64,000 bases of DNA, from positions 6,293,300 to 6,357,299 of the forward strand of contig CM000152.2 of the NCBI GenBank assembly GCA_000004695.1, read 5' to 3'. The translations under genes and the position numbers were made by a program. Every line of letters begins with the position of its first letter. The first letter of the stretch is position 1. The notes under the pieces are model-generated. The model was not told where the DNA came from. It searched no databases and saw only the letters and a list, made by a program, of their open reading frames with translations. This document shows, in pieces, positions 1,283 to 47,541 of the stretch. This DNA is from Dictyostelium discoideum. Lineage: Eukaryota.

Positions 1283-1954
1283 TTCATTACTTTGAAGTGC
1301 CGCTTTTGCATCTTCTAATTTCTTTTCTTTTTTTCTTTCAACTGATCTAACACTTGTGTAGGCAGTTGCCAATGATTTTGGAGTGATACCAGTCTCAGCC
1401 AACATATTAACGATTTTTTTGTAAAGGTTTGCTCTAGATGTTTTCTCAATTATTAAACCAGGTGGTTGTTTACCAGATTTCTCTGCTTCAATTAATAGGG
1501 TTGAATTCTTTAATTCAATGATCTCTTTATTGGTTTTAACAATCTCAAATATGATTTCCCTAGCTTCTCTACCCCAAGTGTATTCGGTTGGTTTATCTGA
1601 ACCAGCAGTGACTGCAGCAGAAACTTGTTCATTAAATTCTCTTTTAATTAATTCTTCGAATGAATTGATAAGACCATTTAATTTTTCGATGATCTTTGAT
1701 GATTTATTTTGAGTTTTTTCACCATTTTCCTCCCATGCTTTCTTTAGATGATTTCTAATAGTTTTATCTTTAATACCCCATTTCATTGATAGTCTTGCCA
1801 ATACACTACCTGGTAAAAATCCTTGTGCATTGGTTCTTCTTAACATATCATATAATTGTGCTAATAATCCACTAACTTTTCTTGGTAATAATTTAATATC
1901 ATCTTTTGCTGCCAAACCTAACAAAAATAATAATAAAAATAATAATTAGTATTA

Positions 1955-2019
<65 letters not shown>

Positions 2020-3305
2020 CTTTTTTCTATATGAATATATTTAAAAAAAGGTAATACAATACAAGAATCAATTTCAGATTCTAATTTTACAATCAAATTT
2101 TCAATCTCTGGTGATTGAATATCTAATAATACAAGTTTTGGTTTTTTATTTATACTCAAAGAATCTTCACCAATTTTTCTTTTCTTTGAGGTTGAAGATG
2201 GTGCACTTCCACCATCAGTATCTCTATCACTTTTACTACTTTGGAAATATTCTTCTTCTTCCTCTTCTACTATACCACTATTTTGATTATTATTTTGATT
2301 ATTATTATTACTAATATTATTATTAACACTATTATTACTACTACTATTATTATTAACACTATTATAGCTATTATTACTATTATTGTTATTATTATTATTG
2401 TTATTGTTAATATTATTATTATTATTATTATCATTTTCAGTATCATTATCAATACTATTATTAGCATCATCGTCAACATCTTCTTTATAAGGATTATTTA
2501 AGCTTTGTTTTCTATATTCATCATAATCATCATCCTCTTCATCTTCATAATCTTCATCATAATCCTCATAATAATCGAGTGGTCTTTCTTTATGAGAGAT
2601 ACTACCTTGGTTAACAAAGAATCCACCAAAGCTAGTTTCTAAATCTGCATCAAACTCTTGTACCTCTTCATCGTCTATGAATGAATCATCGTCATCATAT
2701 TGATCCTCTGAAGAGGGTGAATCATCTTCATTGTAATTAATTGCTGAGCCTAATGTATTAATACGTTCAATTTTATCAATAACCTGTGTAAGTCTATTCT
2801 TTGGTTTCAATTGAGTCATTAGTTCTTTTTCAATTTCAAAACTTTCTTTCAAATCATTTGGTGCACCTGGTGCTCTATAAAAACCACTATTAATCTTTGT
2901 TTTGTTTTGCTCTTGAATATGCTTTTTAATCAATTCCTTATAATCTACATCTCCTCTTAAACTTTTTAAATTTACTTCAAATCTCATTGTTTTTAGTGTT
3001 GGTGCTGTTGCTGTTGTCGTTGTTGTTGCTGTTGTTGTTGTCGTAGTTGTTGCTGTTGCTGTTTTTGTTGTCGTGGCTACTTGTGTTTTATTGGTTGATT
3101 GTCCAATAGAATTTGGTGTTGTTGTTGCTGAAGCTGTTGTCATTGATGTTATTGGTGTAGTTGGTGTAGTTGGTGTGGTAGTGGTATTATTTGTTGATGT
3201 TTTTGGTGATCCATTTAATGATGTTGATGAAGATGATGTTAATTCTCCTATTGTTAATGTATCATTACAATTTGATACTATATCTTTTTTATTATTATTA
3301 TTATA

Positions 3306-42764: not shown

Positions 42765-44240
42765 GATTTTAAAGATAAATTAAATAAAAAAATATTTAGA
42801 TCAATTAAATCAATGCCAGGTGTTAGTGATATTGTAAAGAAAGAAAGAGCAAAAGCAAAAGTTGAATTAAAGAAAATGTTTAAAACAGATGTTCGTAATG
42901 CACATTATACATTACCATTGAAAGGTATTAAACATGAAGATTTGATTGAAGAAATGAAAGCATTAGCCAAAGTTGATGAATCACATTGGGTAGATTCAAA
43001 AGTGAGTGGATGTGTTTATTTGGGAGAGAAAGAGCATACTAAACTATTGAATGAGGCATATTCATTGTTTTCATTATCGAATCCATTACATCCAAGTGTT
43101 TTCCCATCAATTCGTAAATTTGAAACCGAGAGTATTTCAATGGTTAGTAATATGTTGAATGCACATTCAAAAGTTGTAGGATCATTAACATCTGGTGGTA
43201 CAGAAAGTATTTTCATGGCAGTTAAAGCCTATAGAGATTTCTATAAAGATAGAACTGACAGACCAGAGATTGTAGTACCAGTGACAATTCATGCCGCTTT
43301 CGATAAAGCATGCGAATACTTAAAGATTAGAATCGTGCATATCGATGTGGATCCAGTTAGCTACAAGGTTGATATGGCTGCAATGAAGAAAGCAATCAAT
43401 AAGGATACAATTCTCGTCGCTGGTTCCGCTGTTAATTTCCCACATGGTATTATCGACCCAATCGATGAGATTGCAAAGTTGGCCCAACAATATGATATTG
43501 GTTGTCATGTCGATGCTTGTTTGGGTGGTTTCATTTTACCATTTGCAGAGAAATTAGATTATGATATTCCAGTGTTTGATTTCCGTATTCCAGGTGTAAC
43601 TTCAATGTCTGTCGATACTCATAAATTTGGTTACGCCGCCAAGGGTACCTCTGTAGTATTATTTGGAAATAAAAAGTTAAGAAGAGCAATGTATTTCGTT
43701 GCACCAAATTGGCCAGGTGGTATTTATGCTTCACCAACTTTACCAGGTAGTCGTCCAGGTGGTTTGGTTGCCGCCTGTTGGGCATCATTAGTTTCAATGG
43801 GTAATGATGGTTTCCTCGAGAAAGCAAAAGGTGTAATGGAAACTACAAAGAAGATCATTAAAGGTTTACAATCAATCAATGGTGTTAAAATCATTGGTGA
43901 TCCAAAAGCAATGGTTGTTGCATTCACTTGTGATAACATCTTTTATGTCAATGATTATATGTCAAAGAAAGGTTGGCATTTAAATGCACTTCAAAGACCA
44001 AATTCCTTACACGTTTGTGTTACCGCTAAAATGATTGGTATGGAGTCTTTATTCATTGAAGATCTTAAAGATTCAATTAAATTGGTCAAAGATAATAGTG
44101 GTAGTTTACCAAAAGATGGTACCGCTCCAATCTATGGTTCTGCTCATAGTGTACCTGATAGAGAAATGGTTGGTACTATCTTATCAGATTTCATTGATGA
44201 ATTAATTACACCTGATTATAAACCTTCTCAATCAACTTAA
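42474..44240 (+). CDS. sglA: Sphingosine-1-phosphate lyase (PLP-dependent), 528 aa, exons 42474..42585 and 42766..44240.
   Basis: Exon 1 'MDKANDYLKDYQPAKLVLATAGITAASILAYQAITDR' is a membrane anchor and ends at the donor G|GTAATT. After the acceptor TATAG|AT, exon 2 is collinear with human SGPL1: 'VYLGEKEHTKLLNEAYSLFSLSNPLHPSVFPSIRKFETE', 'SGGTESIFMAVKAYRD', 'HVDACLGGFILPF', 'SVDTHKFGYAAKGTSVVLF' and 'GGIYASPTLPGSRPGG'. Confidence 0.9.
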
Positions 44241-44630
44241 ATAATTAATAAATAATAAATAATATAAATAAATCAATATAAACAATATAAAAAAATTAAA
44301 TAATAAAAAAATGTAATAAATAACTTTAATATCACACTTAAAATAATTTTTATTGAAATATTATTTAAAAAAATTAAAAATTATAATTTCCACCCAGATC
44401 GGTATGAACTATTAATGTGGGATTTAAAAAAAAAAAAATTATTTTTAATTAAAATATTTACTTGGTGGTAAAAATATTAATTTCTATATTTGGCTGGATT
44501 ATTTTTAAATTTTAATTTCCCTATAATCTTTGAAAAAAAACCATAAAAAAAATTAATTTTCTTATTAAATTTACATAATACTTTAATATATAAAATAATT
44601 AATTAGTTAAAATTATATTACACCTTAAAA

Positions 44631-44935
44631 ATGGTAAAATCAAAAAAAATTATTAGAAATAGCAAATTATTAGAAATTCAAACAATGAATGATAAAGATT
44701 TTAAAAGATACTATGGAGTATCCAAGTCTGTATTCTTTTCCCTTTGCGAGAAATTACCAAAGGAGATAAAACAAATATGGGTTCTATGGTTATTTTCATT
44801 TGCAAAGATGGACTATCATTATTTAAAACCGCTTATAATTTTGGGTACACTGAGAAAACTTTCTCAGAAAAAATATGGTTTGTTCTTAATTGCTGTTATA
44901 GAAATTTGAAAATTGATGTAGGTTTTGGCTTATTC

Positions 44936-44992
<57 letters not shown>

Positions 44993-45128
44993 ATTTAAAG
45001 TTAAATATTATAATTTTATATTTTTATAATAATAATAAAAAATTTTTCCAAATGTTATATAAAAATTGTTTTTTTTATTACTTTTTTTGTTCCTTTTTTT
45101 TGTTTAATAATTAAAGTGCACCATTCTA

Positions 45129-45223
<95 letters not shown>

Positions 45224-45831
45224 ATTATTTCTTATTACTAATTGAAAAATAAAAGGATTTTGAATCCAGAAAAATTGATTACGATAATAAAAAGGTAAAA
45301 GATTTAACTAAAAATTCCGATAGAAATTTTCATTTTGCGCTCACAGCATTGGATACAACCGTTTTCCCAATTAGAACAATGGACGATCAATTTTATAGTA
45401 TAAAACACTCAAAGAGATGCCTAAAATACGAAGCAATTGTAACGCTAGATAAGGGAACATGTTGTCACCTCACTGGCCCCCATGTCGGCAGTGAACTTGA
45501 CCTGGTGGTCTACATAAAAGAGGTGGCTCACTTGGATTTACTGCCAGGGGAAAAAATCTTTGCCGACGAGGATTTTTGTTGTAATGAATTTAGTAGTAAA
45601 CTAATTAGACCAATAAAGAAAACCCATGAAACAATGTTGACCAATGAAGAACATTGTTTCAATAATTGGGTTTCATCAAACGGAATTATTGTGAAAAATT
45701 TTTTCAAAGATTTAAAAAAATTTGAGATCCTGAAAGATTGGAGATCATCAATTGATAAACACATGAAAATGGTGTATTTTCTTACATGGGTGGTCAATGA
45801 AGAAAATAAAACCCTATATAAAGAATTATAA
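44631..45831 (+). mobile_element. Harbinger/PIF-type (DDE_Tnp_4) transposase relic. It is frameshifted and interrupted by poly(T) and (ATT)n expansions.
   Basis: N-terminal 'MNDKDFKRYYGVSKSVFFSLCEKL' matches the HARBI1 'DEYLMSMYGFPRQFIYYLVELL' block. In a second frame, 'DGLSLFKTAYNFGYTEKTFSEKIWFVLNCC' matches '[29 protein letters not shown]'. ORF 45349..45831 matches the C-terminal half ('GEKIFADEDFCCNEFSSKLIRPIKK..LTNEEHCFNNWVSSNGIIVKNFFKDLKKFEIL'). The region expected to hold the first catalytic Asp is replaced by simple repeats. Confidence 0.65.
45128..45225. repeat. (ATT)n microsatellite of about 32 units inside the Harbinger relic.
   Basis: Directly visible. Confidence 0.9.
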
Positions 45832-46166
45832 ATAATATGTTTATTTTTTCATTTTTATTTTTTTTTTTTTCTATTTTTAGTTTTGCACTTTTTTTTTAGA
45901 TTTTTATTTTATTTTATTTTTTTTTTTTATTTTTTATTTTTTTTTTCTTAACTTAAAAAAAATCATCATATCACAATATTTGTTTTAATGGAGATACAGT
46001 TTAATTAAAAAAAAAAAACTGGATTTCCCATGTGAAAATTATAATTATATTTATAATTTTCATTTTTATAATTTTTTATTTTTTAATTATTTCGACCCCA
46101 CACATTATTTTTTTATTTTTTTCATTTTTTTTTTTTTTATTTTTATTTTTTTTTTTTCATTCCGAA

Positions 46167-47541
46167 ATGCCTCCCAAGTCCACAACAAACATTGACAATC
46201 AATATTTAAATGATTATATAAAAGATTTAAAAAAATGGCAAATTGAAATTAAAAATAAAGATAAAGAAATTAAACAATCTAAATTATATAATAATAATAA
46301 TAAAAATGATAATAGTACGACAGATCAGCCACAACAACAACAACAGCTAACAACATCACCATCAAAACCAAAAGCTGATAATATAATTGATAATACAAAT
46401 GAATCAATTAAATATAAAGAAAAAGGTAATAAATTATTTGGACAACAAAAATATAAAGAATCAATAGAATATTATACTTTAGCTATTCAATTAGATTCTA
46501 CCAATGCTGTATTATATGGTAATAGAGCAATGGCTTATTTAAAGATGAAAAATTATCAACAATGTGAAATTGATTCAAGTAGATGTTTAAATTTAGATCC
46601 AACTTATACAAAAGCATATCATAGACGTGGTATAGCTAGAGTTGAATTAAAACATTTTGAAGAAGCAATTCAAGATTTTAAACATTTATTAAAATCTGAT
46701 CCATCAAATAAAGATATATTAATTGAATTAAATAAAGCGACATCTCTACTTAAAGATCAAAAAGAAAAAGAAAAACAAAAAGAAATTGATGATAAATTAA
46801 AAAAAGAAAAAGAAGAAAAAGAAGAAAAAGAAAGAAAAGAAAAAGAAGAAAAATCAAAAATTATTCAAGAAATTAAAAATGTTCAACAACCAACACCAAT
46901 AACACCAATAACACCAATAACTTCAACAATTTCTAAATCTTCAAATTTAGTAGTGGAACAACAACCTCAAACTCAGCAACCTCAACAACCAAAAACATTA
47001 ACACTTCAAGAAAGATTAAATAGGATGGCAAATTTGAAAGCACCAATACCAAAGGTTGCACCAAAGAATTCATTTGAATTTGAAAAAGTTTATTTATCAT
47101 TTAATAATGATTTATCACAGTTATATCAATACTTTAAATTAATTGATCCAAATCAATTACCAATTGTGTTGGGTGATGCTTTAACACCTTCTTTATTCTC
47201 TGATATAATTTCTATTTTAGAAAAATATTATTTATTGTAAGTTTTATTATTATTATTGATTTTGTTGTTTTATTTATTTTTTTTAAAAAGAAATAATAAT
47301 AATAATAATAAAGAAAAAAAATATTCTAATAAAATTTAATTTAACATATAGAAATAAGGAATTTAATTTAATATTTAATATTTTAAATAATTTATTAAAT
47401 ATTAATAGAATGTCATTAAATATTCAATTTAGTTCAAAAAATGAAAAATCATCTTTAAAAAACATTATAAATTCATTAAATGATTGCAACACAATTGATA
47501 AATCTAAAATTGATTATTTATTAAATAAATACGCCATTTAG
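46167..47541 (+). CDS. TPR-repeat protein with an RPAP3_C-like C-terminal domain (RPAP3/Tah1-like R2TP adaptor). Main exon 46167..47236 and a tentative terminal exon 47409..47541.
   Basis: The real ATG is at 46167 (MPPKSTTN..). The ORF-track start at 46032 lies in a T-rich leader. Three TPR motifs are visible ('KEKGNKLFGQQKYKESIEYYTLAIQLDSTNAVLYGNRAMAYLKMKNYQQCEIDSSRCLNLDPTYTKAYHRRGIARVELKHFEEAIQDF'). A KE-rich linker follows, then 'FEFEKVYLSFNNDLSQLYQYFKLIDPNQLPIVLGDALTPSLFSDIISILEKYY'. The donor is TT|GTAAGT at 47237. The terminal exon is inferred from the acceptor ATTAATAG| and a phase-compatible frame with no stop. It is weakly supported. Confidence 0.55.

Follow-up and report, generated by a model that had tools for sequence, protein, structure and literature searches.

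The locus described here lies in a 64-kb window of the Dictyostelium discoideum AX4 genome (contig CM000152.2, positions 6,293,300 to 6,357,299; 22.9% G+C), where it is annotated as the gene DDB_G0282883. Our analyses make it probable that what stands here is a copy of a two-gene, cut-and-paste DNA transposon of the PIF/Harbinger type that has been truncated on its left side and can no longer move. The whole relic covers 44317–45975 of the window (+ strand) and is homologous to approximately positions 1329–3093 of a 3093-bp mobile element of D. cf. discoideum. Judged from its sequence, the AX4 locus is most likely a non-functional pseudogene. A first-pass annotation had already described a Harbinger/PIF-type transposase relic in this region, and this is borne out both by a match to the DDE_Tnp_4 domain and by the existence of a mobile family with terminal inverted repeats and 3-bp target-site duplications. 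The UniProt label of the protein is likewise already 'DDE Tnp4 domain-containing'.

The evidence for a transposase begins with the catalytic domain. Residues 11–160 of the translation of 45319–45828 matched positions 1–158 of 158 of the DDE_Tnp_4 profile (PF13359; hmmscan, E=2.7e-28), and therefore the whole domain lies downstream of the simple sequence found within the locus. The open reading frame 45349–45831, the third coding piece between the neighbouring lyase and TPR genes, gives the strong PF13359 match that had been anticipated, but it is not the 'C-terminal half' of the domain that it had been taken for. The domain itself extends over 45349–45798 and, together with the stop codon, belongs to an exon 2 at 45256–45831 (+). 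A tblastn search with P0001, an intact 288-residue relative, gave 87.5% identity across 45256–45828.

The catalytic columns were read from a family alignment of the window protein and 15 relatives. The first catalytic Asp, which had been reported as replaced, is present as the GAT codon of ALDTT at 45352–45354, in the conserved D column of the alignment; the equivalent residue of P0001, D129, is placed on the first long strand of its predicted structure. The second catalytic Asp is also present (GAC in FADEDF, 45565–45567), and the KGY conserved after it has become EDF. At the position of the catalytic Glu the window copy has a Lys (AAA, 45694–45696), reading IIVKNFF versus IIVENFF in the relatives, and the conserved Arg four residues before this site is now Gly (45682–45684). 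The triad of the window copy is D-D-K and no longer intact, versus D129, D200 and E243 in the mobile copies.

Upstream of this domain are two tracts of simple sequence, a run of 51 T at 44938–44988 and an ATT microsatellite at 45127–45229, measured by TRF at 34.3 copies and 94%; the former was also counted by regular expression. Both had been noted before, and the (ATT)32 then given is close to the TRF value and to the perfect (ATT)29 that we find at 45134–45220. The two tracts lie within 44918–45255, a 338-nt segment with a GTAGGT donor, an AAAAG acceptor and a TACTAAT branch-like motif at 45236–45242. Several in-frame GT..AG junctions are possible at this locus, and the one at 44918–45255 matches P0003, one of the public protein models discussed below. 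When exons 1 and 2 are joined at 44917/45256, the product is colinear with the intact 288-residue relatives P0001 and P0002, with 0 residues missing, and the intact relatives have no extra coding sequence at the position of the repeats. An intron is found at the same position in every copy examined, including the mobile ones. Its length is 306 nt in D. dimigraforme and 431 nt in D. cf. discoideum, and L006, a second D. discoideum assembly, has an intron of 313 nt. The GTAGGT donor, the TACTAAT motif approximately 15 nt before the acceptor, and the acceptor itself are conserved in four lineages; the intron interiors are T-rich and cannot be aligned between lineages. In comparisons with the mobile copies, the spliced coding sequence has a ratio of non-synonymous to synonymous substitution (dN/dS) of 0.07–0.13. 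From this conservation, five independent annotations and the low dN/dS of the spliced coding sequence, we infer that 44918–45255 is a spliceosomal intron.

The first-pass annotation had proposed that some 350 bp of simple sequence now stand in place of the catalytic core, and that microsatellite expansion was eroding the transposon. It is true that the simple sequence separates two recognisable coding blocks and that the ATT run is far longer than in the relatives, but an overwriting of the core, first Asp included, by expanding poly(T) and ATT is refuted by a full DDE_Tnp_4 profile downstream of the repeats, an Asp that is in place, a product of splicing from 44917 to 45256 that is colinear with intact proteins, and the same intron in the mobile copies. 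We give this explanation next to no credence. The DDE domain is complete and contiguous; the locus has lost its left end and companion gene, suffered a 1-bp deletion and had its catalytic Glu changed to Lys. The ATT runs in the introns of the relatives are short, approximately (ATT)6 in D. dimigraforme and short and interrupted in the ACTFIR and ACTFIW assemblies, and on this comparison of sequences the run grew in this lineage, within an ancestral intron, with no coding sequence removed. The poly(T) would likewise be intron sequence, and its length differs between assemblies, being T26 at the same site in L006 versus T51 in the window.

The ancestral exon 1 (44631–44917, +) encodes the N-terminal helix-turn-helix DNA-binding part and is broken by a 1-bp deletion. 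The N-terminal coding piece reported earlier exists as the open reading frame 44631–44909, and the middle block that had been placed in a shifted frame was also recovered: the conserved block NFGYTEKTFSEKIW (...KDGLSLFKTAYNFGYTEKTFSEKIWFVLNCCYRNLKID) is found in the -1 frame, which is open to 44917. Alignment with L005, L001, L002 and L009 locates the frameshift at 44804–44806, where a run of three A stands versus four A in all relatives, so that GCAAAAGAT has become GCAAAGAT. The loss of this one A shifts the frame after residue 59, within the DNA-binding part, and the same loss is present in L006. The N-terminal helix-turn-helix region was identified at the fold level. A Pfam scan of the N-terminal pieces found no helix-turn-helix family, its sole match being a spurious one to YfhO, and a PDB sequence search with P0001 found no match.

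Both public gene models could be recreated exactly from the window. The AX4 model of DDB_G0282883 (P0005) is obtained by joining 44631–44877 to 45302–45831, and the NCBI protein ACTFIT_012062 (P0003) by the junction with the intron 44918–45255. The AX4 model uses a GTTTGT donor and translates 23 codons out of frame (MDYHYLKPLIILGTLRKLSQKKY); the P0003 model begins at an out-of-frame Met at 44777. Both are artefacts of threading an open reading frame through the frameshift.

The nature of the element to which this gene belonged is seen from its close relatives, which are confined to group-4 Dictyostelium. Three loci of D. dimigraforme, whose neighbouring genes are unrelated, encode an identical 288-residue protein and are 98–99% identical across about 3.6 kb. 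In D. cf. discoideum six loci encode an identical 288-residue protein and a seventh encodes a close variant, the seven elements being about 3.1 kb each and 98.7–99.4% identical. The loci of these mobile copies are L010–L015, L001 and L002–L004 (at least seven copies in D. cf. discoideum and three in D. dimigraforme). Complete copies start with TGTGATATGG and finish with CCATATCACA, the terminus string of the family being TGTGATATGGTRATT, and one copy from D. dimigraforme has a terminal inverted repeat of 96 nt at 96%. A perfect 3-bp target-site duplication flanks nine of nine complete copies (AAT five times and ATT four times). The element appears to have been recently active in both species.

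In a complete element, the transposase gene has 288 codons and one intron and lies on the strand opposite to a companion gene of 298–327 codons. The companion is divergently transcribed, about 570–610 bp upstream of the transposase gene, and stands beside every full copy. It had been suggested that a Myb-like companion should be sought; there is none in the window, and the gene found beside the full copies has no Myb match. The companion protein belongs to no Pfam family, with no Myb/SANT or MADF match, and it has only four homologues among 5.8 billion proteins, none of them from AX4. Its AlphaFold model predicts an N-terminal three-helix bundle at residues 8–60 (pLDDT about 90) and little else with confidence. 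A Foldseek search with this model gave nothing significant, the best match being a homeodomain at E=2. The designation 'Myb-like' is therefore unproven for this companion.

The closest proteins outside this clade do not exceed 36% identity, and every top outside match with a nameable source comes from a dictyostelid (Synstelium, D. purpureum, Acytostelium, Polysphondylium violaceum and Tieghemostelium). Such a distribution, drawn from protein matches, would fit a long residence in Dictyostelia. A word-indexed profile search stayed within the close clade and is no proof that AX4 lacks other DDE_Tnp_4 genes.

Alignment of the full D. cf. discoideum element to the window by blastn shows what remains of it in AX4. 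Element positions 1329–2080 correspond to 44317–45043 (82%) and positions 2249–3065 to 45103–45928 (86%). The first of these segments begins in what is left of the spacer that separates the two divergent genes, at 44317–44630 (+). This spacer forms the 5' flank of the transposase gene and presumably contains its promoter; upstream of the ATG it has the blocks AAAAAAATTAAAAA..TAATTTCC.CCCAGATCGGTATGAAC, AATTTCTATATTTGG and TTAATTTCCCTATAATCTTTG in common with L001 and L002. A search for terminal repeats on both sides of the locus had been suggested, and the right one is present. A remnant of the right terminal inverted repeat is found at 45934–45975 (+), ending ...CTTAACTT(12 nt)CATATCACA, with host flank from 45976. 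When the last 40 nt of the mobile element were aligned to this end, the score was 53 versus a maximum of 35 in 300 shuffles, none of which reached it (0/300). The exact string TGTGATATG occurs once in the 64-kb window, at the right terminus, and the sequence past this terminus is common only to the syntenic loci L005 and L009.

No left terminus could be detected in the window, where about one in ten shuffles reach the score of the local alignment. No other element termini and no companion-like sequence are present in the window, and the distance from the stop codon of the upstream gene to the ATG of the transposase is only 390 bp. The limited extent of homology, the missing left end, the missing companion and this short gap therefore show that about 1.3 kb has been lost, made up of the left repeat, the companion gene and some of the spacer. 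It is thus the family, and not the window copy, that has an inverted repeat at each end. The right flank starts with ATA, and since the left end is missing there is no triplet pair to compare.

The termini were identified solely by comparing multiple copies from other species. An inverted-repeat search of 44200–46200 returned 873 pairs of A/T-rich low complexity and was uninformative. As a candidate for the left terminus we considered ATATCACA at 44329–44336, which is identical to the last 8 nt of the right end, and rejected it because it is in the wrong orientation and because terminus-like 9-mers with one mismatch are no more frequent in the window than chance would give (14 seen versus 8.8 expected). 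The string is close to where homology stops on the left, and L005 and L009 have it as well.

The family belongs to PIF/Harbinger by the combination of its DDE_Tnp_4 transposase, its terminal inverted repeats, its 3-bp duplication and its second open reading frame. One source gives terminal inverted repeats and 3-bp target-site duplications as defining features of this superfamily (PMC2213677), and another reports that mobilisation requires two element-encoded proteins (PMC2836001). The family resembles PIF/Harbinger elements in having a DDE_Tnp_4 transposase with an N-terminal helix-turn-helix region, both of which are present in the window copy, and in its terminal repeats, its 3-bp duplication and the second open reading frame adjoining the transposase gene. 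The usual PIF/Harbinger target triplet is TTA or TAA (TWA), whereas this family duplicates AAT or ATT (AWT), and its companion differs in having no recognisable Myb/SANT or MADF domain. The window copy departs further from the pattern, with no left end, no companion gene and a Lys at the catalytic Glu. By these tests it is not an autonomous element.

The same truncated copy was found between the same two genes in three other assemblies labelled D. discoideum, namely L005/ACTFIR, L006 and L009/ACTFIW. The upstream neighbour is a gene of the pyridoxal phosphate (PLP)-dependent decarboxylase/lyase type that ends at 44240 (+), and the downstream neighbour is a TPR/RPAP3-like gene that starts at 46167 (+). 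No tRNA genes are present between positions 38 kb and 52 kb of the window. Over 44241–46166, L006 has 0 mismatches to the window; the two differ only in homopolymers, at the poly(T) and by 2 T at 46125–46126, ahead of the TPR/RPAP3-like gene. The ACTFIR and ACTFIW copies are in regions that share 91–92% DNA identity with the window across 10 kb. The transposase has a synonymous divergence of 0.10, versus 0.07 for the neighbouring PLP gene, and this similarity would fit an orthologous insertion and a truncation that are older than the split of the AX4, ACTFIR and ACTFIW lineages.

The copies in these lineages have since accumulated lesions of their own. Non-synonymous changes that map to the AX4 branch include E243K, K201E, G202D and Y203F; in AX4 the conserved Arg is Gly, one Lys codon is deleted, and the frame is shifted as described above. 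A 2-bp deletion where exon 2 begins is peculiar to ACTFIR, and another 2-bp deletion, common to ACTFIR and ACTFIW, shortens the C-terminus. The intact reading frame expected of a HARBI1-like gene is found in ACTFIW alone and is broken in AX4 and ACTFIR.

We propose the following history for the locus. A copy of the element would have inserted between the PLP-dependent lyase and RPAP3-like TPR genes before AX4 split from the ACTFIR and ACTFIW lineages. The left repeat, the companion gene and some of the spacer would then have been lost, and the mobility of the copy with them. In the AX4 lineage, the stranded transposase gene would later have gained the 1-bp deletion in its DNA-binding part and the Lys at the catalytic Glu, with the residues beside the second Asp also altered. 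Expansion of the ATT run in the intron would have cost it no coding sequence.

Selection on the gene was examined by the Nei-Gojobori method over codons 1–280, an estimate that takes no account of transition bias or of the extreme bias of mutation towards A+T and that is based here on small counts. By this measure, dN/dS is 0.07 between the mobile copies of D. cf. discoideum and D. dimigraforme, versus 0.50 for AX4 and ACTFIR, 0.39 for AX4 and ACTFIW, and 0.27 for ACTFIR and ACTFIW. The upstream PLP gene, used as a control, gave 0.05. The difference between solo and mobile copies is significant (Fisher p=0.0015). The downstream TPR/RPAP3-like gene (46167–47240 compared with L005) was tried as a second control and set aside; its dN/dS of 0.70 between AX4 and ACTFIR is probably inflated by alignment through a Lys/Glu-rich low-complexity region. 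Constraint on the solo copies would appear to be strongly relaxed, though not clearly zero.

Several observations weigh against a simple reading of the locus as a dead transposase. Summed over the solo branches there are 14 synonymous and 19 non-synonymous polarised changes (omega about 0.3), which is not fully neutral and lies below the simple neutral expectation (binomial p=0.003). The ACTFIW copy, apart from its shortened C-terminus, retains an intact open reading frame of 284 codons with D, D and E, and in AX4 a protein could still be made from the Met at 44777 of the P0003 model. The intron and the lack of function in AX4 are themselves deduced from sequence, and the search of AX4 for other copies or for the companion gene covered the 64-kb window.

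Because the dN/dS of the solo copies is not clearly neutral, past or partial domestication keeps some probability, although we consider it unlikely. According to this alternative, the host kept the stranded gene in the D. discoideum complex to serve a cellular function, as with HARBI1, and AX4 either lost it recently or uses a truncated, catalytically inactive form. Arabidopsis ALP1 and HARBI1 are domesticated Harbinger transposases. The locus resembles these and the insect cases in being a solo gene with no terminal repeats, a loss typical of domesticated transposases, at one syntenic position kept across three diverged lineages, and the work on insects reports recurrent domestication of PIF/Harbinger (PMC9710019). 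The intact D-D-E frame of ACTFIW and the dN/dS values of 0.27–0.50, which are under the simple neutral expectation, point in the same direction, as do the relatives from D. purpureum that also have a Lys in the catalytic Glu column. However, the frame is broken in two of the three lineages by independent indels (one of 1 bp in AX4 and one of 2 bp in ACTFIR, where exon 2 begins), the deletion common to ACTFIR and ACTFIW truncates the C-terminus, and dN/dS is 5–7 times that of the mobile copies and 8–10 times that of the PLP gene. AX4 has lost the catalytic Glu, and its frameshift disrupts the DNA-binding part. The gene also differs from HARBI1-type cases in being restricted to the D. discoideum complex and in having no co-domesticated Myb-like partner, the search for companion homologues having found no companion-derived protein from AX4, and the apparent constraint comes from small substitution counts (33 polarised changes). 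A specific form of this idea, about as doubtful, is that the gene between the lyase and RPAP3 genes was for a time under host constraint (omega about 0.3–0.5), as a nascent Harbinger domestication that is now being lost in AX4 while the parent element still transposes in D. cf. discoideum and D. dimigraforme.

The two D. purpureum proteins concerned, P0013 and P0018, read QCVKN and KCIKN at the catalytic Glu column and have long Pro/Ser-rich C-terminal tails; P0013 also has no first Asp. It is possible that these are domesticated or dead genes.

Another alternative is that the locus is a still-active source of transposase acting in trans, which mobilises non-autonomous relatives, such as deletion derivatives or elements resembling miniature inverted-repeat transposable elements, elsewhere in AX4. 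Deletion derivatives of the family are known from D. cf. discoideum (L017) and, as the fragment L016, from ACTFIW, but the frameshift and the Glu-to-Lys change argue against an active product, no other element terminus is present in the window, and no AX4 homologue was found for the companion, two element-encoded proteins being needed according to PMC2836001. We regard this as very unlikely, and an immobilised, degenerating element remains our preferred reading.

L017 3974–5614 (D. cf. discoideum) joins element positions 1–950 to 2425–3093 and keeps both termini, and L016 5095–5580, a non-syntenic fragment in the D. discoideum-labelled ACTFIW assembly, starts at the L017 breakpoint and is 97% identical to the D. 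cf. discoideum element. The pair suggests recent activity or transfer of a non-autonomous form. More distant DDE_Tnp_4 genes, of 327 and 286 codons, adjoin copies of the element at L001 7779–10932 and 11334–13298 and at L011 1909–3168. One of them is about 40% identical over 69 residues, some have their own divergent partner open reading frame, and a 209-bp inverted repeat at 98% is found at L001 12570–12778 and 12903–13110. The genomes concerned probably contain several Harbinger families.

Rearranged relics of the element have been annotated as single genes in two further species. In D. firmibasis (L008 5888–7378) the gene model runs together the N-terminus and the C-terminal tail of the transposase with the C-terminal domain of the companion, and the DDE domain is missing. 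In D. citrinum (L007 3014–4131) one gene model fuses the first residues of the companion to exon 2 of the transposase.

The first-pass annotation had supposed that this family was not among the catalogued DNA transposons of D. discoideum, and a review of the mobile elements of this species supports that view, since it lists only Tdd, DDT and Thug as DNA transposons and mentions no PIF/Harbinger element (PMC5633606). The family has in common with Tdd-4/5, DDT-A/B/S and thug-S/T that all are class II elements of the same host genome (PMC5633606). According to the same review, no transposase of these three groups shows significant similarity to a known one, whereas the window family encodes a clear DDE_Tnp_4 protein; this separation follows the description in the review. 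In the literature searched we found no mention of DDB_G0282883, no match for 'dimigraforme' and no link between Harbinger elements and dictyostelids.

Taken for what it is, the result adds a family and corrects an annotation, with no new mechanism, and will not surprise the field. A PIF/Harbinger family has been missing from the reviewed list of D. discoideum DNA transposons, and DDB_G0282883 should be annotated as a frameshifted transposase relic and not as an ordinary protein-coding gene. The locus is a small, clean example of the fate of a transposase gene after its element has been immobilised, and the complete copies in the sister species represent a two-component cut-and-paste system that occurs naturally within the genus and may provide a genetic tool for Dictyostelium.

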